A DNA stretch of 62,867 nt, the filler included, from Aduncisulcus paluster (lineage: Eukaryota): assembly GCA_024181965.1 (NCBI GenBank). It is 5 parts of 5 records of this genome, joined end to end, with 100 filler letters (N's around TTAATTAATTAA, not from the genome) between each part and the next. Parts side by side here need not be neighbours in the genome. Positions count along the whole stretch, not along the records: positions 19,108 to 29,083 come from BQXS01010851.1; 4 more parts are not named here. One strand, given 5' to 3'. Position numbers and translations under genes: made by a program. The notes under the pieces are model-generated. The model made no database searches and was not told the DNA's origin. It saw only the letters and a program-made list of their open reading frames with translations. This document shows positions 1-30,066 of this stretch, piece after piece (the first letter of the stretch is position 1; every line of letters starts with the position of its first letter).

Positions 1-3000
1 CCATATTTCCAGAAATCTGCCTCTTCCCATAAGACATGGAATCTATTTATATCCACAATGAGCAATGTTGTTGTAAATCTCATTGTAAAATCTTATCCCT
101 CCCCACAGAAGCTTATTATGGATATATTGACTTCCTTTGTTGTTGGATGTAATCCAAAAGAATGTCCTTCGCAGTTATTGAAGGGCAAAATACCTTGTGT
201 TATGCCATTTGGCCTTGTATTATTGCAGAATTTGAGGGAGCAGATCATGCTTCGCTATTTTATGAACAGAGATTTGGTGATGCCCTTTGAAATTGGGATG
301 TTTCTGGTCGATTCAGAATTGTATTTAGTTCCCACTGCTGATTATTCCCATCCTCCTCCATTTCCTTCTTCCTCTTCCTTCACAGACGTTGAGATCACAT
401 TTGTTTCATCTTTGAAAACTACAAAGATTCCTTCCCATATTACTGCTTCATGTCGATCTCTATCGAGGAGGTTTGACATGATCAATGAGGCCTGCGATAA
501 ATCTGAGCTGACATCATATCTTTTGAAAGACCTTATCAATGGAAAGTATCACATGGTCGCTTCATTTCTATCTGTCTATTTGACCATGATTGACCAGTCA
601 TTCATTTCAGCTGAGAAAGTCAAGAAAATTCTGAATGAGTTTATCGATCAACGATTTACAAAGAAATCACATCCTGTTGCTGAGCAGTATGTTATGAAGG
701 CTTTCTTTTCATACTCGTGTGAAAGAATGTTTGTTGATCCACTTATATGGGAAAAGAACATTACATCTTCAACATCTTCCATGTCTCGTCTCTGGGCTGA
801 TTATGACCATGAAGATGTTGACGACTGTGTGAAGTATCACTCTCTTGCTGGAGTTTTCACGACTCTTAATAGATTTCAGTATTATCAAATAGATCCTTTT
901 GAGTGTGCCAATGAATTGAACTCTTCGGCCAGTGATAAAGAGGATTTCTTTTCTAGAATGCAACATGTGGCTGAGTGTGATGTTCAAATCCATCAAACAG
1001 GGAAGAAATCGATCAAAAAGGTGAAACCGAAGCATTCAATTCCATTACTTTGTTCCCTTCTTTGTTTAGGATATAAACCCAAATTTGAGAAAGGTCGAAA
1101 GAATGGTATCCAGCCGAAATATTGTCCATACATTTCCTTGAACAAAAAAGAATACCATCGTCGACATGTTGATCATTTCTATTTGTCAGCCTTCTCTTCT
1201 TCTCGCCACTCTAATCCTCTAAAAGTCCCATACTACCAGATGCCACTGATGTACTCTCAGCTCCAAAAGTGTTCATCCCACGTTGCTCCTTGGTCTTGCC
1301 TTTGTTTTGTCATTCAACTCTATGTGGGACTTTTGTTTCTCAATTCTCGTCCTAATTTAGATTCTGATAAATCTGATCCGATGATTTTCCAATCTAATCG
1401 TGGTTTACATAGTGCTATTAATTCCAGTTTTGGTAGGGCCCAGACCCATTCCACATCCCTCAATGATGCTGCTCTCGTTGTGGCCTCGTCTTTCCTTCCC
1501 ATTGTGGACCACTATATAAGTTCGAGTGTTCTTGGCATTACTTTCAACAAGACATCGAATCCATTCATATTTCAAACATTACGACTGTGTTCTACAGTGT
1601 TGGATGTATTCCCATCCAACTTACTCCGTAGTCCAATTTCTCACACAATTCTATCAAAAATAGATGGATATTCTAGATTTTATGAGGAAAAAATGTTTAA
1701 TAAGATGCTCATTGTGCCATCGTTCATGTCTTGTGTCATTATGCACCAAGGTATTGAATCAGCTCAAAATCAATTTGCAAGGAGTTATGGGGGGCAAACC
1801 CAATCATTAGAGAGAATGAAGGACACATTGAGTTGTTTATTGACTCCTTCCTTCCTTTGGAGGATCATTAACCATCATATATTCCCAAAATTCATTGATA
1901 CGGCCTCTCAGAACTATTCTAATCCCTTGCATGAGGATGTAATTGCGTTTAAAACTTCAGTGTTATCATTTTTGATGCCAAGTGATATTTCTAAAGTTAT
2001 GTGGATTCTTGATCCACTATTTGCTCCCTATTCTGGTGCATCTATCCTTTTCCAAGAGTTGTTTATTAAGAAGCTCTATCCCCACCTCACACGAGAAAAT
2101 GGAAAGGTTATTGTTGATCGAATATCTGCTGGAATATGGGATCCTTATGTGTCCAATATGTTTTTGACACACTACCCTCAGATATTTGACATTGAAACGC
2201 TTTATTCCCTTGGAAAATCAGGTTTATTTGATCCATTTGTTATTCTTTCTGGAATGTTCTCGATCTATTCCATTTCTAAATGCACCACACTGTTAATGAA
2301 TGCAATAATTGTTTACTATTCCCCTACAAGAGCGGAAGTTCCCCTTTTCGATTGCTACGCTGTCCAATTATGGGAACAGATTGTGTGTTTTAAATTCCAC
2401 TTTGGCTATAAAAAATCCTACATTTCGGATGATTGTGCGATGCCTCTTCTTTTGTTGAGTTATCTACACCACTGGACAAGTCTGTCTGACAAGGAACCTG
2501 ATCAAATTATTGATCCTCTCATCCAGGATGAATGTAATTGGAATAATATGATTCCCCCGCATGTTATTGTTGCTCTCAGTTCACAAACCATGATAGAGAA
2601 GTCTCGAATCTTAGTTGTAAACCAATATTTGAGGTACATATTAACGAAAGCTGTCCTCTCCCAGGACATTAATGAAAATGATCTCATTTGCCTTGAATCT
2701 TTACTTATTTGGCAACAAACAAAGCCAAATGCAATACCATCAACCATGGCCAACCTGCAGAACAAGACCATTCGTATGATTCTATCTCTATTTCGAGATG
2801 GTGTTTCTCAAAATCCAGCCTCAGCAATGCACCATGAAGATTCTGTCAAATATGTCCGTTTCACTCGTAGGCTTTTGATGAATAGAATTCTAAGTATTTT
2901 CACTGACGAAAGCGAGATTTCTACTCGACTCGTAAAGACATGCATGACCCATCTGGTTCATTCCTGCACGTATGGAGTTTTGAGTGATATCAACCCCCAA

Positions 3001-6000
3001 TCCCAGAATTATTCAGAGCTGTCAAATTCTTTTCAATCCTTTGTTACCTCGAAGGTACCTGCCGTTGTTGTTTATGACACAATCGAAGATTTCAAGTCAA
3101 AACGTGACCTCTTTGAAATGTGGTTTTCTCTATATTTACTGTTTGTGTGTTGCCATACTGATGCAGGAAAACAGATATCTATTGAATCCACGGGAACAAA
3201 TCAACCATACTTGGCTTTGTTCGAACAAGAGAAATTCTTTTCTCTCTGGACTCATAATGTACTAGAATCCTCTTCTCTCTCTCAATCTGTAATTCTATTC
3301 CTTGACACGATTGAACGTAAATTCTTAGTATCCTCCCCATCAATACAAGTAAGAGAAGAGGGAGAAGATTCAGTATCCATCTCTCCTTTTGGAGCTCACT
3401 TATTTTCTGAGATATATGCCGATATTCTCTTCAAATCAGGTATCCATGGCCTTCAAAGTGCCAGTATTTTGTCCGTTATGTTCTCTGCTTTCCACGAACA
3501 TTTACAGATATATCCTGAATTCCTCAATATCTTCAACTCCGGTGGTATTATGGGATTTCTGATGGATAGCCAGTATTCTTCAATGCTCAAGGACCTTATT
3601 TGTGCTTACATGAGGATTGGAAGGACTCAGAAACGTTGTATGGGTTCTCCAAACAGTGAAGATTGGAGCAAATCAGATACTGGTGGATCTTGGGATGAAA
3701 TACACCACCATTTGATGAATCCTGTTCTCAACAAACTCTGGAGACACTTCCACACTTCGTTCATGCTTATTCATCGCTCTTCTAAATATATCACTACTAA
3801 TAATCCTCAATACTTCTCCTCTCCTCTCAATATGATGCTATGTTCCACTCGCCACTGTTTGATGATAGAACCAACAAATGGCTGTCAAAGGGAAATTCCT
3901 CTACTTTTCTTCAGGAATCTCCTTGATGTTGTTCTGTTCCAAACTATCCATAAAAAGTATAAATGCAATGTCTATGCCTCTGCGTCTTGGAATGTTCCCC
4001 TTTTCGATTGGAAGCATGCTGGAGGCTTCATTCACTTTGGACCTTTGTATTATATTATTACTATGTTTGTATTTCCCCTATTTTCTGGAAGAAAAAGGCG
4101 TATTATATCTGGAATCGATGAGCTTATGTATATTTGGTGGACTGGGAGATCGCTTATGTTTGAATCTGAGATGGCAAAGAGTGTGGAGAAAAGAATAGCG
4201 TATGATATGGCCAACATTGGAAATCCTCATCCAGATTCCCATGAAAATGAAGCAATTAGCGCCATCCACCCTGCCGATTCACTCTTGTTCGCCATTAGCA
4301 ATATTCGATCCATCCCTCAAATGGTTCCTCATATCTTCCTTTTCTGTTGTTCTATTAATAGAAATCAGATTGATGAAAAGTCCCTTATCATATTGAATTC
4401 TCTTGTTCCTCTCATGTTCACTCTTCCAAGAGAGCTTACCGCAGTAATCACCACTCTTTTGATAAGGTTTGAAACGGAATTGAAATCTTTCCCTTGGAAT
4501 TTTATCTCTCTTTTGCAAGAAACCAAGGCATTAATGGCCAAGAAAGAATTTTCAGGGGGGAAAATCCCGAAAGAACTGATATCTGAAGTAATTTTGGCCG
4601 TGAAGAAGAATATCAGTAGTTTATTGAAGGCATTTGGAAGCTCTTGGTCATTGTTCCCATCTCATTGCTGTTGTCAGTTTATTGCTTCGATGAACACAAA
4701 TACCTCATTTGATATTGTGACATTTGGCCAATATTTGATACTGATGATTTACAAGTTTGAAGAGAAATTCGATCAGTCGAAGCTTGATAATTCATATTAT
4801 ATATTAGATTTCCTTCGTAATCCATTATCTGCATATGGAAATTATACAAGAGGATGCCGAATACTTCCAACATTTGCTTCATATTCCCACTTTATTATTG
4901 ATAATTTTGAGGACACTCACCAGATTACTGTAAATATCGATGCCAAATTCTTTCCTCGATCTATTTATAGAAATATGGAGATCATTCGTGCCATTTACTG
5001 TCTATCCAAGCGTACTTTATTTGCTCCCGATTCAAAATTGAGTATTGTTGATCGCGATGGATCATATTTCCAATGTATTTATAATCCAGTGATTGAAAGA
5101 CGTCCTTTGTTTTCCGAGAATGAGAATATCTCTCCTGAATTATCTTATTTAAACCCTTTCTTCTTAATTATCGAAAATAATATGTCCACAATTGGATCTT
5201 CTGATTCTTCTTCTGGATCAGTCGAGGAATATATGTATTATATCAATACTCTTTTCAGAGGGAATGATATTCTGATCATCTCCCTTTCATTACTCATTGG
5301 TATCATACACTCATTCCAAACACCTGAGATCTTGAAAATAGTGAAAAGGGAAGGAATGATTGGAGCTCTCAATGCAAATAGACAGATTCGTGAACTTCTA
5401 CGCCTGTCTCTGAAGGTTATTCTTGATGAAAATCTGAAATATAAATATTCTGATTTATTTTGGAATAGTTCCGACAAGAGTTCGTTTGAAAATATTCTTC
5501 GATTGTTGTCAGATCCCGTCGTATGTTTTCTTTCTCGCCATGTATATGCTCTCATTGAAAAAGAAGACTTTACTAAATATTCCACTGGTCGTGGCATATT
5601 CATTGGCCGTCTGAAGTATTGTTTAAGATTTATTCATAACGTTGGCCTCTCAGAACATTCTTTCTCTCCTGTTCTCCGCTCCATCTGGAATGAATTTTTC
5701 AGATATTATTCCAAATACAATTTTATTTTAACAGATTGCAAGGATCCATCGATGCTTGTTCCCAATCTCTACCGATTCTATACCCTCGAACAGATGTTAA
5801 CCAACGAATCTTGTTGGAATTTCCTTGAAATGCTTTACTATTTCAATTTTCAGAAACATTGCATCCCTAAGCTTCAAGCTATCAAAGATAGGAAGAAAAT
5901 ATGGGATAAAGAATTAGTTTCTCAATTTGCCCTGATGCTTGATTGGTGTAAAGCAAGCAAAACCGATGAACTATTTTCCTTTTTGGAATCAGTGAAAGCA

Positions 6001-9000
6001 GATATTTCGAAAGGAATATACATGTGGAAACATTGTAAATTTGATCGCATTCCTTCATTCAAAGAGAGTGAAGATCTCTATGTGAAGTTCAGAGATAATA
6101 AGAAACAGTATCAAGGTGCTCTAAAACTATTCTTCGATATTGGTCTTTTCAGAATTTCAGAACTGAAAGATCCTCTGATTCAGACAAGGATCCACACTCT
6201 GAATAGTATTGTCACTTCTCTCACAGGTTCAAGCTTTGTTGATGATCCATTATGTGTCATTAAATTTGACAAGACAACTAACATGTATCTATTATTAGAC
6301 TCTTTGAGAAACTTTAGTAACTCCAATTCCAATCTCAACAGTTTGGTTTTCTTGAACGATCTTCACCGTTGTGGATCAAAAAAGTTGTTTTTCATCCAAT
6401 CATTTGTCAATGACACATGTCCTGTTGCTCTCGATTCTTTTGTGGATGACATTATGCAGGAATCCATTGACCAACCCTTTCCTTGGGAACGATTTGGAGA
6501 AGTTATCAAGGCTATTCCCGAAGAATTTAAGTTTGATAAGAAAACAGTTCATTTATCCACTCAAAATGTTCTTGATCTTATCTCATACTCTCGGCAAACA
6601 GATGCTGTCTTTCTGTGTGCCATGTACATGAAATGTATCCTATGGGAACTTTCTCATCTTATCAATGAGGGTCTTTGTCATTCTCCTGCCGATGTTTCAG
6701 AAGATAATCATGATCCAGATTATTTCATTTCAACCTCGTTTAAAACTATCATTAGTTCAGTCAATTTTTTCCAATCATTTGAAGGTTCTGTGGCTGAGTA
6801 TTATGGTAAGAAATTAAATATTTTTAATTCTCAAGTGAAACACATAGTTCAGAATATCCTCACAAGACATCTTAATGATCCCAATTATCTGCTTTCGATG
6901 GTCCAACTCTGGAGTGGTAATTTCAAACAATGCACAGATTCAATCGTTTCTATTGGATGTCAGATCCCTTACATATCCCTCATGAAATGTTTCTCCTTGA
7001 ATTTTCATGGATATGCCGCTCTCAAATTCTGCCTTGAACACACATTGCTCAGAGTTTTCAATGGAGATTCCTCAACTTCTTTGCAAGAAAGGAACATGTT
7101 GTGCGATCTCAATCGAGAAAAGGAGTATATTTCAAGAGAATATGGATTTGATGTATGGAGAGTGATCTTTGAAAGTTCAACTATTCCTCATGTCGTGGAG
7201 AGACTTAGTGCTGAAATTGCGAAAGTTCAGGAACCCATAGAGAAATATGTGCTTATAGAGAAATTAGGATACATGTACCCGTTCATTTCCAACATAAATG
7301 ATGTTTCCAATAGACCGATTGTTGATTTTCTCTTGTTTTGTAAGTGTTGGAAGTATGTTGCTCACATGTATAGAGATGCCACAATTGAAAATCTCTTCAC
7401 ATTGATAATAGTTGAAAAAGACCGTAAGCATGAAAGCGATGAGGCTAAATCCAACAATCCACAACAAATCCAAGAACAAATCGATTCTGTTGACACCGTT
7501 CATGCCAAACTCAGTTCTGATTTCCCTTATTTGTCTCGATATGGATCTCTTAGTATTTTTATTGCTCTTGCGATCCAGCATAACCTCACCATCCCATCTG
7601 CTCTGTCTGATTATCTCCTCCCTCAGTTCCCCCTCTCCTCTTTCTCCCTTCCTGATGCATCCTTTGCCTTCCTTAACACCTTTTCCTTCCCTTTTAATTC
7701 GCTCCCCTTTATTTCAGCCGTCTTCTCATCCCATCCTTCTTTGTCTACAATGTATCGAGTTGAAGTGTACCTCTCCGGAGTCTTCATCATTCCCTTAAAC
7801 TGGTCCATTGTAAAGAGGATCCTACATTACACACACCAGAAACCTCTCAAGGGTCCCATTGAATGTATTCCATCTGAAGGACAAAGTGCTATCTCCCAAA
7901 GACAAGGTATCATCATTCACTCGTTGAATGAGGCAAAAACTAGATCTTCGAAACAATACTTGAAGAAAGGGTCAGGGTGGGCGACAAAAAAGCGTCGTGG
8001 AGAAGATAAAAGAGACGAGTTTGTTAAGTCTAATCCCTTTCAGAAAAAAGGGCCAACGTATTACTCTCCAAATATTATCCCTGCGCAAAGACTAGTGTCA
8101 AGGTTCTTTTTGCTGCATGCCTTACAAGAGAAAAATATTCTATGTGTTTTTTCCTCAAAAGCTTACTTTTGGAAGAATTATGTGTCTTCCTTTTCCTTAG
8201 CTCCTGCCTCCGATTCGAAATCCAGTGAAATCATGCCCTCACCCTTGTCTTCATCTGTTGATTCTGAGAACCCTGAGAACACACAGGACAGAGGAGAAAG
8301 TGAAGAAATGGTCAAAGTTCAAATTCGTTTTAGATCAATATTTTCGCATATTCCATCAATAATCCACAATCTCCCAGAATCTCAAGCCCAGATCCACCTT
8401 CCGTTTCCTCTTTATGAATATCCTGAAGAAATGGTATCAAAATATCCTGAAGCTCTTCCGACTGGTAGCAAACCGATACCATGCGTTCTCTGCGTTTCTC
8501 CAGTTGGAGCTCTTGCGACGATTAGGCATTCTTCAACCTCTTATTCTCCTCTTGATATCTTTGTGAGTATACTGAACAACTTCATGGTTCCAAGGGAGGA
8601 TCTTGCAATTTCCAGAGCCATGTTATCTGATCCAATTCGCTCCTCATCTTGCCGTTCAAGAAGAAGCCTCTACCCCGATGCTGTAATGATACGAAAGCCT
8701 CTTGTGGCGATATCTCTCACCGATATTCACCCACAACTCAAACTATATTCCCTTCTCACGCCCGCCTTTGTTAGATCCATTGAGGTAGGAGAACGTATCT
8801 TTAGACACATTCCCTCACGGCTTTCATCAAGAGTTAAATTCGAGGATTGCCTCGATCTAGGTATCCTGCGAGCCATCAAGACACGAAACAAAATTCACAG
8901 CTCGGTTTCATTTGAGGGGATGATTGCTCAGGATGCTGGTGGAGTGTTCAGAGAGTTTGTTGGTCGTGTTATTGAAGGGGGATTATCTAGGATTTGTGAG

Positions 9001-9927
9001 GAAAATTGCGGGGTTTTCACTTTCATTGATGATAATTCAAGAAGTTGTACATATCCGCTTAATGATCGACTGACAATTGCTTTTACGATGGGTGTATACA
9101 CAGCTGTGACTTGGAAAATGTCACACAAATTCTCCTTCCCAATGTGCTCATTTCTTGTCATGTCTTTAAGATATATGCTCCGGGCTATAACGTTCTGTGA
9201 ACACAAAAGGCTGAAAGATTTTAAATTCTTGGAGCACATTAAAAATTTGGATCCACCCACCAAGATTGTGCATGATTTCGTTGAATTCGCTCCATATTCT
9301 TTCGATCCGTCATGCAAAGGAATGGCTCACTTTGTTCGATCCCATCAAGAAGCAAAACAAATGGGAATGGAATGGCCAGATTCGCTACGTCAAAATAACA
9401 CTGATCACATTACTCCAATTTCGACAGAAATCGAAGATATGCACGATTATAAGACTTTTATTATGTATAATTTGTGCCGCAAAATATTAAAAGCTCCCAA
9501 AACAATCTGTGCGTTTGCATTAGGATTCGCCACTTCCCTGCCTATTTCATCTGCCTTCTTGGATATTCCAAATCCGAAGTTTATTCTTGCACTGAAACCC
9601 TCCATTGAAGTTCTGAGAGCAGATATTATAAGACTTGTAAGAAATCCAAACAGGGTTCCATTGATGGAAATGTTTGAAGATCATGTGTTTACTCTCACTC
9701 TTGAGAAAGCTATTGAATTTGTTGAAAAATTCTTCAGATTTGGTTCTTCTGCACCTCGAATGAAATTGACCATTGATGATAAACTCCAGGAACACCACAA
9801 ACTTCCCACAGCCTCGACATGCAGTGGTTATATTCATGTTCACCCGGATTGGGATCCAAAAACAATGTTCGAAAAGTTCCAAAGTGTCTTCAAATTAGGG
9901 GCTCATATCACCTTTGGATTTGTTTGA
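1..9927 (+). CDS. Giant HECT-type E3 ubiquitin ligase (>=3289 aa; probably 5'-partial)
   Basis: C-terminal HECT motifs: VSFEGMIAQDAGGVFREF, catalytic LPTASTC and terminal TFGFV*. The frame is open from base 1 to the ATG at 58, so the true start may lie outside the window. No domain recognised in the N-terminal ~2900 aa. Confidence 0.85.
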   Translation, partial: PYFQKSASSHKTWNLFISTMSNVVVNLIVKSYPSPQKLIMDILTSFVVGCNPKECPSQLLKGKIPCVMPFGLVLLQNLREQIMLRYFMNRDLVMPFEIGMFLVDSELYLVPTADYSHPPPFPSSSSFTDVEITFVSSLKTTKIPSHITASCRSLSRRFDMINEACDKSELTSYLLKDLINGKYHMVASFLSVYLTMIDQSFISAEKVKKILNEFIDQRFTKKSHPVAEQYVMKAFFSYSCERMFVDPLIWEKNITSSTSSMSRLWADYDHEDVDDCVKYHSLAGVFTTLNRFQYYQIDPFECANELNSSASDKEDFFSRMQHVAECDVQIHQTGKKSIKKVKPKHSIPLLCSLLCLGYKPKFEKGRKNGIQPKYCPYISLNKKEYHRRHVDHFYLSAFSSSRHSNPLKVPYYQMPLMYSQLQKCSSHVAPWSCLCFVIQLYVGLLFLNSRPNLDSDKSDPMIFQSNRGLHSAINSSFGRAQTHSTSLNDAALVVASSFLPIVDHYISSSVLGITFNKTSNPFIFQTLRLCSTVLDVFPSNLLRSPISHTILSKIDGYSRFYEEKMFNKMLIVPSFMSCVIMHQGIESAQNQFARSYGGQTQSLERMKDTLSCLLTPSFLWRIINHHIFPKFIDTASQNYSNPLHEDVIAFKTSVLSFLMPSDISKVMWILDPLFAPYSGASILFQELFIKKLYPHLTRENGKVIVDRISAGIWDPYVSNMFLTHYPQIFDIETLYSLGKSGLFDPFVILSGMFSIYSISKCTTLLMNAIIVYYSPTRAEVPLFDCYAVQLWEQIVCFKFHFGYKKSYISDDCAMPLLLLSYLHHWTSLSDKEPDQIIDPLIQDECNWNNMIPPHVIVALSSQTMIEKSRILVVNQYLRYILTKAVLSQDINENDLICLESLLIWQQTKPNAIPSTMANLQNKTIRMILSLFRDGVSQNPASAMHHEDSVKYVRFTRRLLMNRILSIFTDESEISTRLVKTCMTHLVHSCTYGVLSDINPQSQNYSELSNSFQSFVTSKVPAVVVYDTIEDFKSKRDLFEMWFSLYLLFVCCHTDAGKQISIESTGTNQPYLALFEQEKFFSLWTHNVLESSSLSQSVILFLDTIERKFLVSSPSIQVREEGEDSVSISPFGAHLFSEIYADILFKSGIHGLQSASILSVMFSAFHEHLQIYPEFLNIFNSGGIMGFLMDSQYSSMLKDLICAYMRIGRTQKRCMGSPNSEDWSKSDTGGSWDEIHHHLMNPVLNKLWRHFHTSFMLIHRSSKYITTNNPQYFSSPLNMMLCSTRHCLMIEPTNGCQREIPLLFFRNLLDVVLFQTIHKKYKCNVYASASWNVPLFDWKHAGGFIHFGPLYYIITMFVFPLFSGRKRRIISGIDELMYIWWTGRSLMFESEMAKSVEKRIAYDMANIGNPHPDSHENEAISAIHPADSLLFAISNIRSIPQMVPHIFLFCCSINRNQIDEKSLIILNSLVPLMFTLPRELTAVITTLLIRFETELKSFPWNFISLLQETKALMAKKEFSGGKIPKELISEVILAVKKNISSLLKAFGSSWSLFPSHCCCQFIASMNTNTSFDIVTFGQYLILMIYKFEEKFDQSKLDNSYYILDFLRNPLSAYGNYTRGCRILPTFASYSHFIIDNFEDTHQITVNIDAKFFPRSIYRNMEIIRAIYCLSKRTLFAPDSKLSIVDRDGSYFQCIYNPVIERRPLFSENENISPELSYLNPFFLIIENNMSTIGSSDSSSGSVEEYMYYINTLFRGNDILIISLSLLIGIIHSFQTPEILKIVKREGMIGALNANRQIRELLRLSLKVILDENLKYKYSDLFWNSSDKSSFENILRLLSDPVVCFLSRHVYALIEKEDFTKYSTGRGIFIGRLKYCLRFIHNVGLSEHSFSPVLRSIWNEFFRYYSKYNFILTDCKDPSMLVPNLYRFYTLEQMLTNESCWNFLEMLYYFNFQKHCIPKLQAIKDRKKIWDKELVSQFALMLDWCKASKTDELFSFLESVKADISKGIYMWKHCKFDRIPSFKESEDLYVKFRDNKKQYQGALKLFFDIGLFRISELKDPLIQTRIHTLNSIVTSLTGSSFVDDPLCVIKFDKTTNMYLLLDSLRNFSNSNSNLNSLVFLNDLHRCGSKKLFFIQSFVNDTCPVALDSFVDDIMQESIDQPFPWERFGEVIKAIPEEFKFDKKTVHLSTQNVLDLISYSRQTDAVFLCAMYMKCILWELSHLINEGLCHSPADVSEDNHDPDYFISTSFKTIISSVNFFQSFEGSVAEYYGKKLNIFNSQVKHIVQNILTRHLNDPNYLLSMVQLWSGNFKQCTDSIVSIGCQIPYISLMKCFSLNFHGYAALKFCLEHTLLRVFNGDSSTSLQERNMLCDLNREKEYISREYGFDVWRVIFESSTIPHVVERLSAEIAKVQEPIEKYVLIEKLGYMYPFISNINDVSNRPIVDFLLFCKCWKYVAHMYRDATIENLFTLIIVEKDRKHESDEAKSNNPQQIQEQIDSVDTVHAKLSSDFPYLSRYGSLSIFIALAIQHNLTIPSALSDYLLPQFPLSSFSLPDASFAFLNTFSFPFNSLPFISAVFSSHPSLSTMYRVEVYLSGVFIIPLNWSIVKRILHYTHQKPLKGPIECIPSEGQSAISQRQGIIIHSLNEAKTRSSKQYLKKGSGWATKKRRGEDKRDEFVKSNPFQKKGPTYYSPNIIPAQRLVSRFFLLHALQEKNILCVFSSKAYFWKNYVSSFSLAPASDSKSSEIMPSPLSSSVDSENPENTQDRGESEEMVKVQIRFRSIFSHIPSIIHNLPESQAQIHLPFPLYEYPEEMVSKYPEALPTGSKPIPCVLCVSPVGALATIRHSSTSYSPLDIFVSILNNFMVPREDLAISRAMLSDPIRSSSCRSRRSLYPDAVMIRKPLVAISLTDIHPQLKLYSLLTPAFVRSIEVGERIFRHIPSRLSSRVKFEDCLDLGILRAIKTRNKIHSSVSFEGMIAQDAGGVFREFVGRVIEGGLSRICEENCGVFTFIDDNSRSCTYPLNDRLTIAFTMGVYTAVTWKMSHKFSFPMCSFLVMSLRYMLRAITFCEHKRLKDFKFLEHIKNLDPPTKIVHDFVEFAPYSFDPSCKGMAHFVRSHQEAKQMGMEWPDSLRQNNTDHITPISTEIEDMHDYKTFIMYNLCRKILKAPKTICAFALGFATSLPISSAFLDIPNPKFILALKPSIEVLRADIIRLVRNPNRVPLMEMFEDHVFTLTLEKAIEFVEKFFRFGSSAPRMKLTIDDKLQEHHKLPTASTCSGYIHVHPDWDPKTMFEKFQSVFKLGAHITFGFV

Positions 9928-19585: not shown

Positions 19586-21145
19586 CTATTCTGCATGGAT
19601 TGCCCATTCAAGGGTGTAAGAACCATCTTGATCGATCCTCTCAAATCCATGTGATCCGAATCCATCTCTCATTGCCTGAATGAAAGAGATGGATTCCATT
19701 CTCTCTTTACACATCTGGGTGATATAATTCATCGTGCTACTAAGAACATGGCAGGGAATTCCAGCTTGCATGAAGTTGTAGACTAAATCCTGCAATTGAA
19801 GCATTCTCACCTTGTCAAATGCAATCTTACGGAATCTTGGAGATGAAGCCCACCACGTCTCTCCCTCGCATTCCTCAAGAGGGAGAGAAAGAGTAGATTC
19901 AATGGTAGTTCTCGTGAACCCACTTTTCGGCTTCACATAAGACTCTTGGTGAGTGAATGTGAGGGTAGTATCCGGTGCAGAACCATACGTATCCTCAGTT
20001 TCTTCAAACTCACGGAGCAGAGGCATCCGAATAATACATCCTCCTTGCCAAACTCGAGTACATTGCTTGATATCAATATCCCATGAATATTTCTTAGAGG
20101 CAGCAAATATGAGAGAAAGACCCTGAGAAAATGCCTGTCGAATAGCAATTGCAAGGGCTCCATATGTTCGATTCATCAATCCTTCAGCCTGTGGTTTGTT
20201 CCGCATTCCACTGATGGTGAGAGCCTTGGAGAAAGTACATCGAGTAGCAGTACGAGCACTCATAGCTCGTTCCTCAAAAGCTGCCTGAATAGAAGGCACA
20301 GGATATCCGAGTTCAAGAGCGGCCTGACATGTCCATAATCCAGTTCCCTTATGACCAGCGACATCACGAATCCTATCAACAACCAAGGGATGCCCTGTCC
20401 CAAGCTCCCTCTTCCGGACAACATGTCTCATAAGCTCAAGTAAATACCCACCAAGATCTTGATGCTCCACAAGAGAATCCGAAGCAACGGCCAAACCACG
20501 ATCACCCACCACCGATCTCAAAAGGTTAAAAACTTCCGCAATCATCCCCATAATAGCATACTCTATACCATTGTGAACCATTTTAACAAAATGTCCAGCT
20601 CCATTGGGTCCAAGTCTTGAGACGCAGGGACGCCCATGGTAATCCCTGGCAGCAGCTTTCTCGAGGATCTCATGAGTCCATTGCCACGCCCGATCTGATC
20701 CTCCAAACATCAAAGATGGACCATTTAATGCCCCATCTTTTCCACCAGATATTCCAAGACCGATAAACTCAACACCTTTCTCGGCATACTTTTCACTACG
20801 AGCCATGGTATCCTTATAAAAGCTATTTCCACCATCAATAATGGCTAAATTATCTCCTTCAAGGCGTTTGTGAACTTCAAGAACAAGTTCATCACTCACC
20901 AAATCAACAGCAGCCCCAGCACTCAACATGAGAAACACAACCTTATTGGTGGGTAATTTACATAGAACATCTTTAATTGAAGTAGCTTTCGTGAATTTAC
21001 CTTCATGACTATAGCGACGCAGGAAATTATCAGTTTTTGAATGAGTTCGATTGTATACAGTAACGTTATAGCCTTTCCGTGCGAGATTCCGTGCCAAAGC
21101 ACTTCCCATGACACCCAAACCAATAACTCCAACAGATGTTACCAT
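19586..21145 (-). CDS. gnd: 6-phosphogluconate dehydrogenase, decarboxylating
   Basis: GVIGLGVMG Rossmann motif, YNRT, IDGGNS, ISGG, catalytic HFVKMVHNGIEY, KGTGLWT, GGCIIR, QAMRDGFGSH. Likely ATG at 21145. Confidence 0.97.
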   Translation of the reverse strand: MVTSVGVIGLGVMGSALARNLARKGYNVTVYNRTHSKTDNFLRRYSHEGKFTKATSIKDVLCKLPTNKVVFLMLSAGAAVDLVSDELVLEVHKRLEGDNLAIIDGGNSFYKDTMARSEKYAEKGVEFIGLGISGGKDGALNGPSLMFGGSDRAWQWTHEILEKAAARDYHGRPCVSRLGPNGAGHFVKMVHNGIEYAIMGMIAEVFNLLRSVVGDRGLAVASDSLVEHQDLGGYLLELMRHVVRKRELGTGHPLVVDRIRDVAGHKGTGLWTCQAALELGYPVPSIQAAFEERAMSARTATRCTFSKALTISGMRNKPQAEGLMNRTYGALAIAIRQAFSQGLSLIFAASKKYSWDIDIKQCTRVWQGGCIIRMPLLREFEETEDTYGSAPDTTLTFTHQESYVKPKSGFTRTTIESTLSLPLEECEGETWWASSPRFRKIAFDKVRMLQLQDLVYNFMQAGIPCHVLSSTMNYITQMCKERMESISFIQAMRDGFGSHGFERIDQDGSYTLEWAIHAE

Positions 21146-21596
21146 TGCTAATCGAAAAACAACAAAACTAATGAGAAGATTTCTTATCACAATTATGACT
21201 AAACTGTTGAGTAGAATTTGAGAAATGAAGGCACAGGAAGCAAAATAGAGAAAGAAATAAATATATTTCGCATAACAATTGTTAAAAATATGAAATTATA
21301 TTCCTCATTAGTATCACAACTGCAGATATGAGAAAGGTCCTATTTCAGTTGTAATATCGTCGAAAACAAAACAACAACATTAAATATTCTTTTAAAAACG
21401 AAAAATAAAAGTCATATACATAAAAGCCATATCTTGATTGAGCCAAATAAAGGAGCTGAAAAAATATTATCCTTATGGCGAATATCAATTGACTTACAAA
21501 ATAGATAACTTAAAATTATGAATAAAAACAATGAAAAAATTAATTTGGTATAATAATTAAAAAATTATAATTGGAAATTATAAAGCAAAAAAATTG

Positions 21597-21602
21597 AAAA
21601 AA
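21597..21602 (-). terminator. Pol III oligo-T terminator of the SRP RNA
   Basis: T6 on the minus strand just after the terminal helix. Confidence 0.6.
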
Positions 21603-21782
21603 GAAGTGTCCATCTGCCGTTGTTTCACCGTCCCACTACAAATCTGTGGCGCAGCATATTCCCTGCTCCCGAACGGGCCTGAGGCGGTACCTCCACTTCA
21701 ATCGAACCCAAGCAATAGACTTCTCTGAAGCTCGTGAACAAACCAAAATCTAAGCAGGATGAAACCAACATATGGCTGGACA
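21601..21782 (-). ncRNA. SRP (7SL) RNA, compact form
   Basis: Minus strand contains the helix-8 SRP54-binding motif CAGG-CCC-GUUC-GGG-AGCAG (about 21663-21681) and UGUAGUGGGA, which resembles the 3' helix-5 strand of eukaryotic 7SL. Long 5'/3' pairing: GUCCA/UGGAC, GCC/GGC, GUUUCA/UGAAAC, UCCUGCU/AGUGGGA, UGGU/GCCA. It ends in a T6 run. Confidence 0.85.
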
Positions 21783-21794
21783 AGAACATTTATC

Positions 21795-21841
21795 TTTATA
21801 TTAATATATATGGAATAATGAAATCGGCATAAATCAGCTAT
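21795..21841 (-). promoter_or_regulatory. Upstream element ATAGCTGATTTATG (21841-21828) plus TATA-like box for the SRP RNA
   Basis: 12/14 identical to the element upstream of tRNA-Sec. TATATATTAATATAA begins about 29 nt upstream of the inferred 5' end. Confidence 0.55.
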
Positions 21842-21997
21842 ACATGATAGAAGCACTTTAGTCAATACATCTCCAAGCTCAAAAAATGCATAAAAAATAG
21901 ATTAAACGTTATATCTCTATAAAAAAACACTTCATTATAAATAAATTTTTACAATTGGTTAATAAAAATGATGTTTGCTAGTCTACATTTATCCTTC

Positions 21998-22011
21998 ATA
22001 GCCGATTTACG
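21998..22011 (+). promoter_or_regulatory. Upstream element ATAGCCGATTTACG for tRNA-Sec
   Basis: Starts 59 nt before tRNA nucleotide 1; the mirrored copy sits about 59-60 nt before the SRP RNA 5' end. Confidence 0.55.
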
Positions 22012-22056
22012 GGAACAATTGATCCATTAGATTCTCATCAACCCCTAGAATGGGTT

Positions 22057-22145
22057 GTGGAGTTGAGCGCTAATGGTTTAGCGGATGGGTTTCAGCCCCA
22101 TTGCTCGGCTTTCGAGAGAGGTTCGATTCCTCCTACTCCACGCCA
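22057..22145 (+). tRNA. tRNA-Sec (anticodon UCA), eukaryal/archaeal 9/4 fold
   Basis: Acceptor GTGGAGTTG/CTACTCCAC (9 bp with a U.U pair), 6-bp D stem CGCTAA/TTAGCG with TGGT loop, 6-bp anticodon stem GATGGG/CCCATT with loop TT-TCA-GC, variable arm CTCG/CGAG, 4-bp T stem GAGG-TTCGATT-CCTC, G73 at 22142, CCA at 22143-22145, T5 at 22159-22163. Confidence 0.93.
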
Positions 22146-22809
22146 TTTCTCAATATTATTTTTCTTTATAAGGTTCTTTTTTGATATTAATTTGGTATTC
22201 AACCACATCAAGAAGATTTTGCCCCGACTATCTCAATAGAATTGTTCATCAAGTTTCATTGGAGTCACCTTTCCTTTTTTTGCCCAAATCAAAAATAATA
22301 TCTCCTTTTCGATGATATATCATTGATTAAATCGCCATATTATTCCCAATTATCACTCAAAAATATAGATTTTGTGTGTATTCAACCGGTGAAGAGATTG
22401 CATACGTAATTGAAGGTGTTTGCAATTTATTAACATATTTTCTTTCAAAATATTGTTTATAAGTAGAAAATCCTTTCAAATTTCCCCATAAATATGTTAC
22501 CAACAAATTATTAAACGATTTATTATTGTGGGTTTAACATTGGCACTCATATTATGCCAATCTCAATTTAGGAAATATAAATCAACATATCTTTAGTGGT
22601 ATTTACTTTTTTATTGTTGCTGTTGGATCTTCATTTCAGTTGTTTGTCAATGATTGTTTGACAATTTTGACATCCAATCCACCTTCTTTTTTCGTTTTTT
22701 GTCATCTATTCTGATACCTCCCTTCATTTTTAGTTTCTTGTTTTATTAATATTTTCATTATTTTAGTTTCTATTTAACCTCTTTTTGTGATTATTCGTTT
22801 TAAACAACA

Positions 22810-23922
22810 ATGGTTCATATTTTGATTACAGGTGGTGCCGGATTTATCGGATCTCATTGCGTGGAGGAATGTATTGAACGTGGAATACCGTGCACTGTTA
22901 TTGATATTGATTGTTCACCCTCGCGACGCATTAGTCATCCTCATGTCGCGTATGTCGAAGGTGATATTACAAACCCCGAAACTTTTAAAAAAATTGAAGA
23001 GTCTCCAACTCATATCATTCACTTAGCGGCAGCAATTTCAGTTACTGAATCAATGAGACTCCCAACCAAATATCGACAAACCAATGTTGAGGGTTCCAAA
23101 CGAGTATATGAGTTCGGTGCTGCATGCAAATGTCATCGAATCGTAAGTGCTTCAACAGCCGCTGTGTATGGAAATCCAAAGGAAATTCCCGTCAAAGAAG
23201 ATACTCTCCTCTCCCCTCTTTCTCCATATGCTGAAACCAAGCTTGAAATGGAAAAAATCGGCCGTTCTCTCGCGTGTAAAAAACAAGAGGATGTCCCAGG
23301 CATGTTTTCATATGCTGATGAGTCAGGAAGTTCAAGTTGGACTGAATCCTCTAGCGCCATTTCTGACAGTGACACTCCCGCACCCAGAGAAGACAAATGC
23401 CCTCATGCTGCCGAGCAGAAGGATCGTCCAAAGGTTTCGTCGATCCAACCATTTCCTCCCTTACATTTCCTTCGTTTCTTTAACGTATATGGACCTCGCC
23501 AGGATCCATCATCTCCATACACCGGTGTTATATCTACATTTGCTGCAAGTGGTCAAACAGGGAAGAATCTCATTATTTATGGAGATGGAACGCAGACTCG
23601 TGATTTTGTGTTCGTAAAAGATGTCGTAAGTGGAATTTTCCATCTGTTATTATCTCCTGTTTTTGATGAAACATCTTCTCTTGTTTTTAATGTCGGTACG
23701 GGACGTGGAATCTCCATTCTTGAATTGGCTCATACAGTTCTGAGGCTTGTGAAGTCTCCGAAATCCAAAATAATTCATTCCGAAGCAAGACCCGGAGATA
23801 TCAAACACTCATGTGCAAATATTAGTTCTTTCAAAGATAATGGTTGGAAACCCAAGATATCCTTTGAGGATGGTCTAAAAATGACTCTTAGTTGGATTGA
23901 ACATGAATATAAATGTAAATAA
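22810..23922 (+). CDS. Extended-SDR UDP-glucose/UDP-GlcNAc 4-epimerase-like protein
   Basis: TGGAGFIG, HLAA, SASTAAVYG, catalytic YAETK, LRFFNVYGPRQDP, GDGTQTRDFVFVKDV, RPGDIKHS. Confidence 0.9.
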   Translation: MVHILITGGAGFIGSHCVEECIERGIPCTVIDIDCSPSRRISHPHVAYVEGDITNPETFKKIEESPTHIIHLAAAISVTESMRLPTKYRQTNVEGSKRVYEFGAACKCHRIVSASTAAVYGNPKEIPVKEDTLLSPLSPYAETKLEMEKIGRSLACKKQEDVPGMFSYADESGSSSWTESSSAISDSDTPAPREDKCPHAAEQKDRPKVSSIQPFPPLHFLRFFNVYGPRQDPSSPYTGVISTFAASGQTGKNLIIYGDGTQTRDFVFVKDVVSGIFHLLLSPVFDETSSLVFNVGTGRGISILELAHTVLRLVKSPKSKIIHSEARPGDIKHSCANISSFKDNGWKPKISFEDGLKMTLSWIEHEYKCK

Positions 23923-24044
23923 TAAACCAATTTTAAATTCAACCAATACTAGTCATAATGAGCGTTTCCCTCGCGATTTATTTCTCTATTGACTCCTAGG
24001 GAAATCCAATCAACAAAATCTGCCGATTTTGCAGAGGTCAAAGT

Positions 24045-25528: not shown

Positions 25529-28500
25529 ATGTCTGATCTTGATATGGATAGATATTTGCAATTTATGCTTCTAAAAGCATCCAGTTCGAAGAATTGGACC
25601 AAATTATCAAAGCAGCAAGTTTTGGCTTTGGAACGAATTAAAGCAAAAATTGGAGATGAATTATTTCAAATATATGAAAATATGGCTCAAGATACCAGGA
25701 AAAGATTAAAATCCAGTGAAAGATCAAATAGAAAAAGTTATGTCGATGGTGAAGAGAAAGCAATGATTAAAATAGAGCCCAAAATATTCTCTGCTTTGAA
25801 AATTTATGATACATCGGTTAAATCTACACCATCCAAAGAAAAGGCTCCGCATCCTATTCTTCCAATCAAGCCCCTTCCCACCATTTCTCAGCCCAAGGAG
25901 ATTTTAGAGACTTCTACAAAGAAACCAATTCAAGATAAATATGATCATACAGATAAAACAATACTTTCCGGTAAAATCCAAGATAGCAACCCCACTTCGA
26001 AAGATACTCATATTTCTTTATCTCCCACCGTTAAACCTGAAAAATCCAAGCCACAAGAGACTAAAAAGCCCGACATAGCCAAAGAGAAGTCAGATCAGCA
26101 ATCCAACGTGACTCCTCAGAATATACCTGATCAAATTGATGAAGAACATGAGCAGGATTCATCTCCCTCTTCAAAGGATGCATCCTCAGTCTTTTCTCAC
26201 ACAAAAGCTCCAACTAAACTCAAAGATTCCACCCCATTGACCCTCGTTCACCATGCTCAGGATAAATCAGCGTCCACGACAATACCTACTGTTGAATCCT
26301 CCTCTTCTCTCCCTATTCAGCCCAATTTCCCATCCTTTTCGACCGATCTTTCCCTTCTCCTCCCCTCCCTTTCCCAGATCCATGGTTCTATCCTTCCTGC
26401 TGCCACTCGTCGTGTCTCCGTCCTTCTCTCCCCTCTCTCGGGCCCTCCAATCTCTCACATAGTTGCCAATTCGCTATCCAAGGCACCTGCGTTGTTCTCC
26501 ATCATTGAGTTTCAGAGGCAAGTTATCCTTGAGACAGTTGCACAACATATCGAGCTGGAACGATCCTTCGAGGAGTATAAGGCCAAAAGCACGCGGGACT
26601 GTTCAACTCTCAGGGTGGCCATTCGCAAAGCTGTTCTTGATCGAGGCAAGATCACTCAGCAACGAGAAGAGCTCAAGGAGAAGATACGAGAGCTACAGAC
26701 AGAGATCTGGAAAGGACAAGAAGAAAATAGGAAAGCAAAGGAAGAGAAAGAGATAGAGAAACAAATTAGTGCACGTAAGGAGAGGGAAATTGATATCCTC
26801 CGGCGCAGTATTGGTCGTGAACGTATGTCGGCCATTGAGTCGATGAGAGAAGACACGGCTTTCCTTGACCCCGTATCGTATGGTTCTCTTTATGCTTCCG
26901 GCAATAATAAGGGAATTTCTGCACTTGGTTCATCCTCTTCTTCGCAAGGATCAGGGCCATTGAGTCCCCGTTATAATAATCCTTTCGGTAGATCTTCAAG
27001 TTCATCCTCAGGAGTTTCTCATCACGTGGGTGAGTCATCCTCTAATTCTAAAAATAGACAAATATCATCTCTTGAGAAACAAGTTGAAATGTTGAAGAAA
27101 CTTGTTGGAGAAAAAGAGGAAGATCTTGAAATTGAGCGTCAGAAACGGATAGATTTGGATGAGAAATGCAATGATCTTGAGCGTTCGTTAGAAATGTATG
27201 ATATGACTCATCGAGGACGGATGTGGGATTCATTTTCTTCCCATGCTCATCCACTCCAAGGGAGTCCCAGATCATTGTTAGGTCGTTTCTCCAATCTGTC
27301 GAATTCGTCTACATCCCCTTCCTCCTCTTCACATATTGCTTCATTTGAATCTTTCCCCATGTCTCCCTCTGCCTCCTCTCTTCTCTCTCGTTGCCTAGGT
27401 GAGAACCAGAAGATGAGAAAAACTATTGCTGAATTGAAGAGATCTAACACTATCCTGTCAAAACAACACCATTCCAAACCGATTTCTAAAAAAGGGCCCA
27501 GAGTTTCTTATTCCACACTGTTGAGAGGTCTCGGAACTATCCTTCTCTCCCCATCTTCCTCATCCTCCCTTCCTTCCCTTCACAAGTCAACAGTTGAGCT
27601 CTCTCGTGTGTTTAAAAAAGAGGTGAAGCGAGTATACGAATCGGTTGCAGTCGGAATTGCTCAGTTTGTGTGCAATGTTGGTTCTATTTGTGGATGTGAG
27701 AAAGAAGTCAAACTTGCTGCGTTATTGTGTGATAATCCCTCTAGATCCCATCAATCGACTTCAGCCAGATCCAAGAATGCAGGAAAGAAACAACAGTCGG
27801 GCGGTATTGTGAAGAACACAAATAGAGGTCACAGTATGAGTATGAGTGTTCAACACACTGGTTCTAAAAATAGATCTTCAACAACACCTAAAATTAGATC
27901 AACCCCACCCCTTGGTTTCGATAACCAATTTCTTGAAAAACGAAGCCCTATGCCGTTTTCTACTCCCCATAGAATTTCCCTTGTGTCCATCGGGAAGGAA
28001 AGAGAAGAGAAAAAGAGAAGAGAAGAAGAACAGGAAAGAAGAAAGAAAGAAGAAGAAGAAGAAAGAAGAAGAAGAGAAGAAGAAAGGAAAAGGAGAGAAG
28101 AGAAAGAAGAACAGGAAAGAAAGAAAGAAGAAGAAAGAATGAGAAAAGAGAAAGAAGAAGAAGAAGAAGAAGAACACAACTATCAAAATGACTTTGAAGA
28201 TATAGTTGCCACAACCATCCAAAATACTTCCTTCACAAAGCCTACCATTACAGCAACCCTTACCACCCACCAAGATGATAGAACCATTGTTAATGATGAT
28301 AGAACCATTGTTAATGATGATAAACAATCCCTCGGAGATAATACAGAGAGTGAATACAGTGAAGAGGATGAACGAGAGTCTAATTCTCGAAAGAAAGCCG
28401 ATAGTGATGGATTCATATCTCCATCCGAATCAGACTCTCTTTCTGAGCGTCTTACTCCTATGCTATTGACCGTGACAACTCATAGAGTATCAATTCCAAG

Positions 28501-29083
28501 TACTTCTTTGAGTACTGATAGCCCCGAGTCCAAACACAATGAAAAGTCTATATCCCACTTCCCCATATCTCCAACCATTATCCCGTCTTCCCAGAGATCC
28601 TTGACCACCGGTAGAAGTGACTCTATGACTCTTCATCAACATCATTCGCTCTCAAGAAAGCTTATAAACGTTCCAAGGACTTCCATCGATATGGGAGAAG
28701 ATGTTCGCGTGAATTCACATTCCTCGGTTGTTTCTAAACCTTTGGGGGGTTCAGGATTGTCCTCGCAGAGAACAGTAACAGGAATACATGACAAATCTCT
28801 CTCAGTTGTCGAAAATACCTCTCGAATGCCAAGAAATTCGATTGATATTGGAGAGAATGTTCATATTCACTTCAAATCTCGACCTAAGACTTCATTGGGC
28901 CATGTTTCTGATACATCTCTCTCCTTTTCTGACTCCAATACAGTACAATATTCCCATCCCAGGGATTCAACTACCCTGGATAAGTCCCTTGAGGAGTTTC
29001 ATGGTGTAGATATTGACCAACTAGACAAGGGAGTATTACAACAGGTGGAGCTTAGTACAGTACAGTCCCTCACAAATAAGCAC
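25529..29083 (+). CDS. Large Ser-rich/coiled-coil hypothetical protein, 3'-truncated by gap
   Basis: >1180-codon ORF with coiled coils, Ser-rich tracts and an E/R/K-rich helix, running into Ns. Confidence 0.75.
27994..28173 (+). repeat. Purine-rich (GAA/AGA) tract encoding an E/R/K charged single-alpha-helix-like segment
   Basis: About 180 nt almost entirely A/G; translates as KEREEKKRREEEQERRKKEEEEERRRREEE... Confidence 0.7.
28274..28321 (+). repeat. 21-nt in-frame tandem repeat (DDRTIVN x2)
   Basis: GATGATAGAACCATTGTTAAT twice, followed by GATGAT. Confidence 0.85.
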
Positions 29084-29183
29084 NNNNNNNNNNNNNNNNN
29101 NNNNNNNNNNNNNNNNNNNNNNNNNNNTTAATTAATTAANNNNNNNNNNNNNNNNNNNNNNNNNNNNNNNNNNNNNNNNNNNN
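29084..29183. other. Assembly spacer N44-TTAATTAATTAA-N44
   Basis: Six-frame stop linker inside Ns. Confidence 0.95.
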
Positions 29184-29728
29184 ATCTTGAAAGTCCATGG
29201 GCTACACATAGGACCCATAATATCAAATTTAGGATTACCAACCTCATCGATCATCTGGAACTCACGGTTGAAAATAGACCACAATTGTTTGATCTCACCA
29301 ATCTTGGCACCGTGAGAATCAAAAGCCTCAAGAAGTTGGAGCCAACAGCACCAACAGCAAGATGGGAAACAACGGAAAGGACGGTTAAACCGACAGATTT
29401 CTTGTCCAGTCATCATGACAACTTTAGCTTCGAAAGGACGAGAAGGACCACAACAGAATCTACAGCAGGCGTTTGACTCTTCCTGAAGCTTTAAAACCTT
29501 CCTTCCATCAGTGGCAACAACTTCATATTCTTGATTAGCATCACAACCACACATAATTTCCATAATACTTTTCTGTTGCATAACTCCGAGAGCGGGGTAA
29601 TATTGGAGGTACTGGAGGGGATCGGTAATAGAAGCAGGACTAGGAATAGGGGCGGGCATTGGGATTTGGGCGGGCATTCCACCAGCCATGGGCATAGGCT
29701 GACCCATTGGCATTCCGGGTTGCATCAT
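29184..29728 (-). CDS. Phospholipid scramblase family protein, 3'-truncated by gap
   Basis: Pro/Met-rich N-terminus, EESNACCRFCCGPSRPF, Cys-rich RPFRCFPSCCWCCWLQ, IGEIKQLWS, FDIMGP. Confidence 0.9.
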
Positions 29729-30066
29729 TCGGGGCTGAGAGCTTTTCCAGCCTCAAATTGCGTTATATCCGATTTAAATTGGCTGAAAAAATCTCATTTC
29801 TCTATTTTGAGCTTTCAACATCAATACAGTGCTTCCTTGAACTGTGTAAGGGGGCACACAAGATCAAATCGGCAGTGGAGCATTTTCATTAAAAATAAAG
29901 GTAATTCTTTAAATAATATTCACTAATTTAAAAATACTTTTTAATCAATTTATATTTTTCCCAATTATTATTGACAGACATATTGAGGAACTTTGGATTC
30001 TTCCAGAAATGCCCTCAGTTCTTATTTTCCCCGCAATATCCATCTTATTTAAATTTTTTTATTGTA

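Follow-up and report, generated by a model that had tools for sequence, protein, structure and literature searches.

Mirrored 14-nucleotide sequences between divergent SRP RNA and tRNA-Sec genes of Aduncisulcus paluster: a candidate external Pol III promoter element

Genes for two small RNAs, a selenocysteine tRNA (tRNA-Sec) and an SRP RNA, stand head-to-head in the genome of the free-living fornicate Aduncisulcus paluster, with a GC content of 39.1% (PMC9933649), and each of them is preceded, some 60 nt upstream, by nearly the same 14-nt sequence. We propose that these 14-mers might be mirrored copies of one PSE-like external Pol III promoter element that serves both genes, a reading of the DNA to which we give even chances. 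A bolder version would make of their consensus, ATAGCYGATTTAYG, the first PSE-type core promoter element to be defined by sequence in a metamonad, bound by a SNAPc-like factor that fixes the Pol III start 59–60 bp downstream, within a mirror-symmetric type-3 cassette co-expressing an SRP RNA devoid of Alu domain and a leaderless tRNA-Sec. This we hold as a tentative hypothesis, possible but on the doubtful side. The features of the locus are listed below, with positions counted along the whole stretch of 62,867 bases that was analysed (henceforth the window).

22159-22163, plus strand: T5 run, 17 nt past G73, likely Pol III terminator of tRNA-Sec
22057-22142, plus strand: tRNA-Sec of the eukaryotic type (RF01852, ARAGORN)
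22039-22057, plus strand: palindrome CAACCC-CTAGAAT-GGGTTG, its 3' arm ending on the first base of tRNA-Sec
21998-22011, plus strand: tRNA-Sec-side element ATAGCCGATTTACG, spanning -59 to -46 when counted from G22057
21842-21997, no strand: AT-rich spacer centre of 156 nt between the mirrored elements
21841-21828, minus strand: SRP-side element ATAGCTGATTTATG, spanning -60 to -47 when counted from G21781
21828-21821, minus strand: second core GCCGATTT, abutting the SRP-side element
21794-21811, minus strand: TATA-like run of A and T only, ATATATATTAATATAAAG, covering -30 to -13 of the SRP RNA gene
21608-21781 (approximate), minus strand: SRP RNA of about 174 nt, with helix 5 and S domain (helices 6 and 8) and no Alu domain (RF01856, fold)
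21597-21602, minus strand: T6 run (A6 on the plus strand), 5 nt past the 3' end of the helix, likely Pol III terminator of the SRP RNA

The segment 22057-22142 is a tRNA-Sec gene, as a preliminary description of this DNA had it, and it is of the eukaryotic type. In an Rfam scan of the whole window the RF01852 model spans 22057-22141 with 63 bits, for a gathering threshold of 47, and ARAGORN agrees, calling a tRNA-SeC with anticodon tca at the same site. Alignment to the covariance model gives the 9/4 fold of eukaryotes and archaea, with an acceptor stem of 9 bp, a D stem of 6 bp, a T stem of 4 bp, a long variable arm and the anticodon UCA. Directly 3' of the acceptor stem, at 22142, comes the discriminator G73, described as essential for tRNA-Sec function (PMC5330540), and the CCA that follows it immediately (22143-22145) is genome-encoded; a run of three T (22146-22148) then lies between the gene and the T5 run. 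The B box is canonical throughout (GGTTCGATTCC, 22120-22130). The A-box region is atypical: it reads TGAGC with an extra A, and such an extra A is a described trait of tRNA-Sec genes (PMC2695483). The palindrome that overlaps the start of the tRNA by one base accounts for a spurious match of 27 nt to the tmRNA model, at 22039-22065.

For the SRP RNA gene, on the opposite strand, the evidence comes from a covariance model as well. RF01856 (Protozoa_SRP) aligns there over helix 5 and the S domain with 52.3 bits (E of 8e-10 in a local search of 901 nt, 5.6e-8 over the whole window), which upholds the earlier assignment though the score lies under the gathering threshold of 65, and the scan of the whole window at gathering thresholds returned no SRP RNA match. 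Such a low score is to be expected for an SRP RNA without Alu domain, as found in diplomonads: this domain is reported missing from the 7S RNA of Spironucleus salmonicida and from the Giardia SRP (PMC3916229). Confident alignment is restricted to model positions 71-228 (helices 5, 6 and 8), where the posterior is high, while the Alu part of the model falls on AT-rich DNA upstream of 21781, with low posterior and mismatched pairs. The S domain is recognised by its helix-8 core, AGG...GAGCAGG, together with helix 6, both closed by a long helix 5. The fold of 21604-21790 is a single long hairpin, closed by the pairing of GUCCAGCC, which begins at 21781, with GGCAGAUGGAC, whose last base is 21608. 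It is this pairing, combined with the model alignment, that places the probable 5' end of the RNA at 21781. Folding energy alone is unexceptional for this short form (z of -1.24 against shuffles), so that the case for an SRP RNA is made by the covariance-model alignment. A longer form, which would reach the motif region (21604-21860), was considered and discarded, as it folds no better than shuffles (z of -0.40). Past its 3' end the RNA sense reads ...GGAC ACUUC UUUUUU CAA UUUUUUU, the second run being a T7 at 21587-21593. Both genes are thus followed by a T-run placed as a Pol III terminator would be, an argument for Pol III that is a weak one since T-runs are frequent in AT-rich DNA.

The lineage is well suited to this pair of genes, because tRNA-Sec is found in Spironucleus and the diplomonad 7S RNA has no Alu domain. 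More precisely, tRNA-Sec and the selenocysteine machinery are described as present in Spironucleus and absent from Giardia and Trichomonas, and the short 7S RNA of Giardia and of S. salmonicida, to which we liken the present SRP RNA by description rather than by sequence, is reported in the same source (PMC3916229).

Between the two RNA 5' ends lies a spacer of 275 nt (21782-22056; 27% GC), in keeping with the earlier account of divergence over about 275 nt of AT-rich DNA. Its centre, at 21842-21997, has neither an open reading frame nor a match to an RNA family. On each side of this centre, and each pointing towards its gene, ATAGCCGATTTACG and ATAGCTGATTTATG are identical at 12 of 14 positions, both mismatches being C/T transitions. 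The first starts 59 nt before tRNA-Sec (22057 minus 21998), the second 60 nt before the SRP RNA (21841 minus 21781). Similarity continues inwards, to 20 nt at 80% identity, and stops sharply at the outer ends. On the SRP side a second core follows, 10 nt past the first (GCTGATTTAT / GCCGATTTCAT); the tRNA-Sec side has no counterpart to it. The features of the motif pair that had been noticed in the preliminary description – coordinates, strands, identity, offsets and abutting second core – are all found in the sequence as it gave them. When ATAGCYGATTTAYG is sought with up to two mismatches, these are the only two sites in all 62,867 bases.

How much weight can such a pair bear? It is made of two instances, spotted by eye after the fact, and chance was estimated with the two spacer halves of 137 nt, each turned to the direction of its gene. 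A match of at least 12 of 14 in the same register (within 2 nt either way) appeared in 26 of 5000 shuffles and, when real intergenic segment pairs of the window were used, the locus itself being excluded, in 33 of 4000. As the length of 14 nt had been picked post hoc, a length-free diagonal score was also computed: with real intergenic pairs the observed value was reached 69 times in 6000, with shuffles 80 times in 6000. The probability of an in-register match by chance is therefore 0.5–1.3%, about 1%, which is suggestive and not compelling. In any register, matches of at least 12 of 14 are common (88 of 500 shuffles), so that the signal resides in the equal spacing. The latter tolerates any SRP RNA 5' end within 21780-21783 and breaks down at 21779 and at 21785.

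That two AT-rich upstream regions should share a functionless 12/14 word near the same offset by mere coincidence is, in our view, rather unlikely, yet it is an explanation to be taken seriously. The ease with which similar words arise out of register speaks for it, as does the fact that a figure of 0.5–1.3% is not negligible when many observations have been listed over 63 kb; moreover, one of the two reference points, the SRP 5' end, is itself deduced, the window holds no third copy of the motif, and the regions around -30 are unlike each other. Coincidence fits less well with offsets that agree within 1 nt and fall where PSEs typically lie, with a similarity that extends to 20 nt at 80%, and with the use, elsewhere, of external promoters by both classes of genes (PMC2695483). 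The 14-mers might also be true binding sites for a protein of another kind than the PSE/SNAPc type: an activator of general use, a factor that marks a boundary or excludes nucleosomes, or a regulator of the Pol II type at the flanks of an open region shared by the divergent genes. We regard this as improbable, while noting that Myb-like factors are reported as greatly expanded in Spironucleus (PMC3916229) and that the short core CGATTTA behaves as a general regulatory word might, 6 of its 7 off-locus occurrences being intergenic in a window that is 19% intergenic. CCGATTT cores are present upstream of two protein genes, one at 24023, 22 nt ahead of the ATG at 24045, the others at 29866 and 29769, before a minus-strand gene that starts near 29727. 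Yet these off-locus sites have 6–8 nt in common, and their flanks have no similarity beyond that, a share at chance level; the full 14-mer is restricted, within the window, to the RNA-gene locus; and its strict spacing to both 5' ends is better suited to an element that positions a start than to an activator.

Two further explanations seem to us highly improbable, to the same degree. One would see the 14-mers as terminal inverted repeats of a MITE-like insertion of 184 bp (21828-22011), or as the relic of an inverted duplication. The copies do amount to an inverted repeat (12/14 over 14 nt, 80% over 20 nt), AT-rich DNA of 156 nt lies between them and their similarity ends abruptly on the outside; against this, the ends show no target-site duplication beyond GG/GG, the repeat has no further copy in the window as a MITE might have, and the insertion would have had to hit, to within 1 nt, a position symmetrical with respect to the two RNA starts. 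The other would make the 14-mers incidental, the A and B boxes inside the divergent tRNA gene serving the SRP RNA gene as its upstream promoter, as in trypanosomatids. There, the companion tRNA lies about 95–100 bp upstream of the 7SL or snRNA gene. Here the starts are 275 nt apart, and such a scheme would leave unexplained why the tRNA side has a mirrored motif equally far from its gene. The layout is reminiscent: a tRNA gene head to head with an SRP RNA gene whose Alu region is unusual, a perfect B box (GGTTCGATTCC, 22120-22130) in the tRNA gene, and, in trypanosomatids, Pol III genes that cluster with tRNA genes (PMC2695483). Yet the tRNA of the present locus is a bona fide tRNA-Sec, whereas the tRNA-Sec genes of trypanosomatids are unlinked to 7SL (PMC2695483).

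Coming back to the reading as an external Pol III promoter element, we find that the locus resembles known type-3 promoters in several respects. Typical PSEs sit in the region of -60. The elements described here lie at -59 to -46 and -60 to -47 relative to the deduced RNA 5' ends, that is, within the range of about -65 to -45 used to define a PSE-type element. Among the closest parallels is the vertebrate tRNA-Sec gene, which belongs to the same gene class and has its upstream element at about -60 to -46, similarly spaced when measured to where the mature tRNA begins; an intact B box and an atypical A-box region are found there too. The sequence of the element found here has no known relation to vertebrate PSEs. 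The vertebrate promoter is described as comprising a TATA box, a PSE, an activator element and the internal B box (PMC2695483), whereas on the tRNA-Sec side of the present locus, known from its sequence alone, we identified no clear TATA box at -30 and no distal activator element.

The SRP side resembles what is seen in plants (USE plus TATA) and in Drosophila (PSEA plus TATA), where an external element that different small RNA genes have in common precedes an AT-rich or TATA region by about two helical turns: it has an element at -60 to -47 and a TATA-like run at -30 to -13. Plant 7SL genes do use a promoter made of USE and TATA. In type-3 promoters, specificity for Pol III is conferred by a TATA-like element near -30. 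In plants and Drosophila, by contrast with the present case, many snRNA genes have the element, at a fixed spacing to TATA, while here two genes are known to carry it and their -30 regions differ, ATTAGATT at -31 to -24 being all that the tRNA-Sec side has to set against the SRP-side ATATATATTAATATAAAG. The general layout of type-3 Pol III promoters of plant U-snRNA genes and of Drosophila is described in PMC1796607.

The mechanism that we envisage is the following. In metazoan 7SL the internal control elements reside in the Alu domain. A tRNA-Sec with its atypical A-box region and an SRP RNA without Alu domain would then be two Pol III genes unable to use ordinary internal promoters. A sequence-specific factor, which may be a SNAPc-like complex, would bind ATAGCYGATTTAYG at about -60 to -46, and the bound factor would set TFIIIB over the region around -30, with the predicted outcome that Pol III starts, on each side, 59–60 bp downstream of the first base of the element. 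On the SRP side the additional GCCGATTT, one helical turn further, would provide a second binding site. On the other side, the predicted start coincides with nucleotide 1 of the mature tRNA and no 5' leader would be made, which is the situation of vertebrate tRNA-Sec. In this scheme the binding of a factor, the identity of that factor, the polymerase involved and the start sites are all putative. Naming the factor SNAPc, and the element a PSE, adds a further inference to that of a promoter element, and background from related organisms may be read beside it: SNAP proteins are said by a secondary source to have been found in Excavata, G. lamblia included (PMC10887745, citing Thiedig 2021), and the TBP of diplomonads is described as highly divergent (PMC3916229). 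The proposal of an external Pol III promoter element, already put forward in the preliminary description, comes out of this analysis in two parts. Its anatomy fits a type-3-like element, as witnessed by the equal offset of 59–60 nt, the T-runs, the absent Alu domain and the atypical A box; the promoter role, deduced from two instances that chance would produce in about 1% of cases, is what we leave as a conjecture. The difficulties are plain: the -30 regions differ, the second core is on the SRP side only, and there are two instances.

We looked for relatives of the element and of the genes. With three mismatches allowed, the window has 20 matches to ATAGCYGATTTAYG for 17.3 expected, and it thus brings no corroboration of the motif. 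No further small RNA gene could be recognised in the window, either at Rfam gathering thresholds or at E values up to 1. A GC-rich island with an upstream GCCGATTT, at 29560-29770, was considered as a third RNA gene and dismissed, since its minus strand codes for protein (MMQPGMPMG..., with CCRFCCGP). A degenerate helix-8 pattern retrieved at least 120 SRP RNA-like loci from metagenomes; among those listed, 18 have a BLAST match to the SRP RNA of the window, which in each case spans 30–46 nt and stays within the universal helix-8 core; one identical core is carried by 80 of the matches listed. Being confined to the helix-8 core, the BLAST matches do not make any of the loci listed a relative. 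Viral contigs scanned with a stretch of 48 nt from the tRNA-Sec gave no match. In the literature, a full-text search with 10-mers of the motif found, among the matches listed, just unrelated primers and probes and no promoter element, and the main texts on fornicates and diplomonads, in the portions available, describe no upstream element of small RNA genes.

What would be gained if the element is real? External Pol III promoters of the PSE/USE type are already well known: the novelty would be in the sequence and in the lineage. Pol III promoter architecture has hardly been described in metamonads. One source states that no Pol III consensus had been published for Giardia (PMC2518118), and another points to missing information on such promoter elements in protists (PMC1796607). 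A genuine element would supply a means of finding the highly divergent small RNA genes that fornicates have (snRNA, RNase P, MRP), expected about 60 nt downstream of the motif, and a data point on the age of external PSE-type Pol III promoters, and it would explain how an SRP RNA without Alu domain comes to be transcribed. Were the whole scheme true, SNAPc/PSE-type Pol III promoters would extend to a lineage that ranks among the most divergent of all eukaryotes. Should the match be due to chance, the locus would be reduced to two neighbouring RNA genes, correctly identified.

The window is gene-dense, with long uninterrupted open reading frames and a GC content of about 32–44%, and it encodes eukaryotic domains such as a polycystin channel, RRM, RING, BEACH and tubulin chaperone D. 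An exact direct repeat of 13 nt on either side of the cassette was judged not significant and dismissed. Two public runs of one sample are relevant here, one perhaps DNA and possibly the source, the other guessed to be RNA. Contigs of the latter cover 19664-21704, 21825-22234 (depth 7.8) and 22357-23909, contigs of this sort carrying no RNA starts, ends or strand, and the gaps between them having no meaning for expression. Finally, the neighbouring gene at 19586-21190, on the minus strand, encodes a 6-phosphogluconate dehydrogenase, the single protein by which the organism was placed among fornicate metamonads, whose closest named relative, at 71% identity, comes from Aduncisulcus paluster, all others staying below 40%.

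When the SRP RNA of the head-to-head SRP RNA/tRNA-Sec cassette (21608-21781, -) is aligned to the Rfam model of protozoan SRP RNA (RF01856), its helix-8 apical loop reads CCC-GUUC-GGG, whereas the Rfam consensus has there a GNRA-type loop (GGaAAC). This loop, together with the missing Alu domain, marks the molecule as very divergent. The second core, which abuts the SRP-side copy of the mirrored upstream element, is similar, taken with its flank (UAUGCCGAUUUCAU; 21819-21829, -), to the 5′ strand of the SRP RNA itself (UAUGUUGGUUUCAU; 21757-21768, -). In the longer fold of the SRP RNA, an extended form with an energy no better than that of shuffles, UAUGCCGAUUUCAU is able to pair with the same 3′ strand as UAUGUUGGUUUCAU. 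The resemblance may be what is left of a partial duplication, or U-rich words may coincide here by chance.

The ends of tRNA-Sec and the outer flanks of the cassette carry the following features:

21539-21551, +, 13-mer ATTAATTTGGTAT, copy 1, 57 nt past the SRP RNA 3′ end
22039-22057, +, palindrome CAACCC-CTAGAAT-GGGTTG, the end of its 3′ arm being exactly the first tRNA-Sec base
22143-22145, +, genome-encoded CCA, directly 3′ of tRNA-Sec G73
22186-22198, +, 13-mer ATTAATTTGGTAT, copy 2, 41 nt past the tRNA-Sec CCA

The palindrome produced a match to the tmRNA model, which is spurious. The ARAGORN prediction of tRNA-Sec reaches 22145, CCA included. A genome-encoded CCA is unusual in eukaryotic tRNA genes, and its presence after G73 may be due to chance. 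As for ATTAATTTGGTAT, its two copies are identical and in the same orientation, one on each outer flank; exact repeats of at least 13 nt appeared in 55 of 1000 Markov simulations, and in 9 of the 109 1-kb tiles of the window, so that the pair, taken alone, is not significant.

Beyond tRNA-Sec, some 660 nt (22146-22809) precede the epimerase gene, the ATG of which is at 22810. No ORF of at least 60 aa was found there, save a spurious one over tRNA-Sec. In the run guessed to be RNA, a contig starts at 22357, 450 nt 5′ of this ATG. The stretch might correspond to a long leader or an intron, or to a transcript that has escaped recognition; the contigs cannot discriminate among the three.

Protein genes and ORFs elsewhere in the window include:

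58-9927, +, very long ORF, 3289 aa as submitted
19586-21190, -, 6-phosphogluconate dehydrogenase
25529-29080, +, very long ORF, 1184 aa as submitted
29190-29727, -, unannotated protein gene
47536-55680, -, very long ORF, 2715 aa as submitted

None of the three very long ORFs gave a Pfam match with an E of 0.001 or less. The unannotated gene, interrupted by masked N runs at 29140-29183, begins MMQPGMPMGQPMPMAGG and includes CCRFCCGPSRPF; its product resembles a phospholipid scramblase. Finally, 6-phosphogluconate dehydrogenase has a single close relative, from a fornicate (71% identity). Its other nearest matches are bacterial, with 35-39% identity, and come for the most part from Actinomycetota and candidate phyla. 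The comparison suggests that this lineage has acquired an enzyme of bacterial type.
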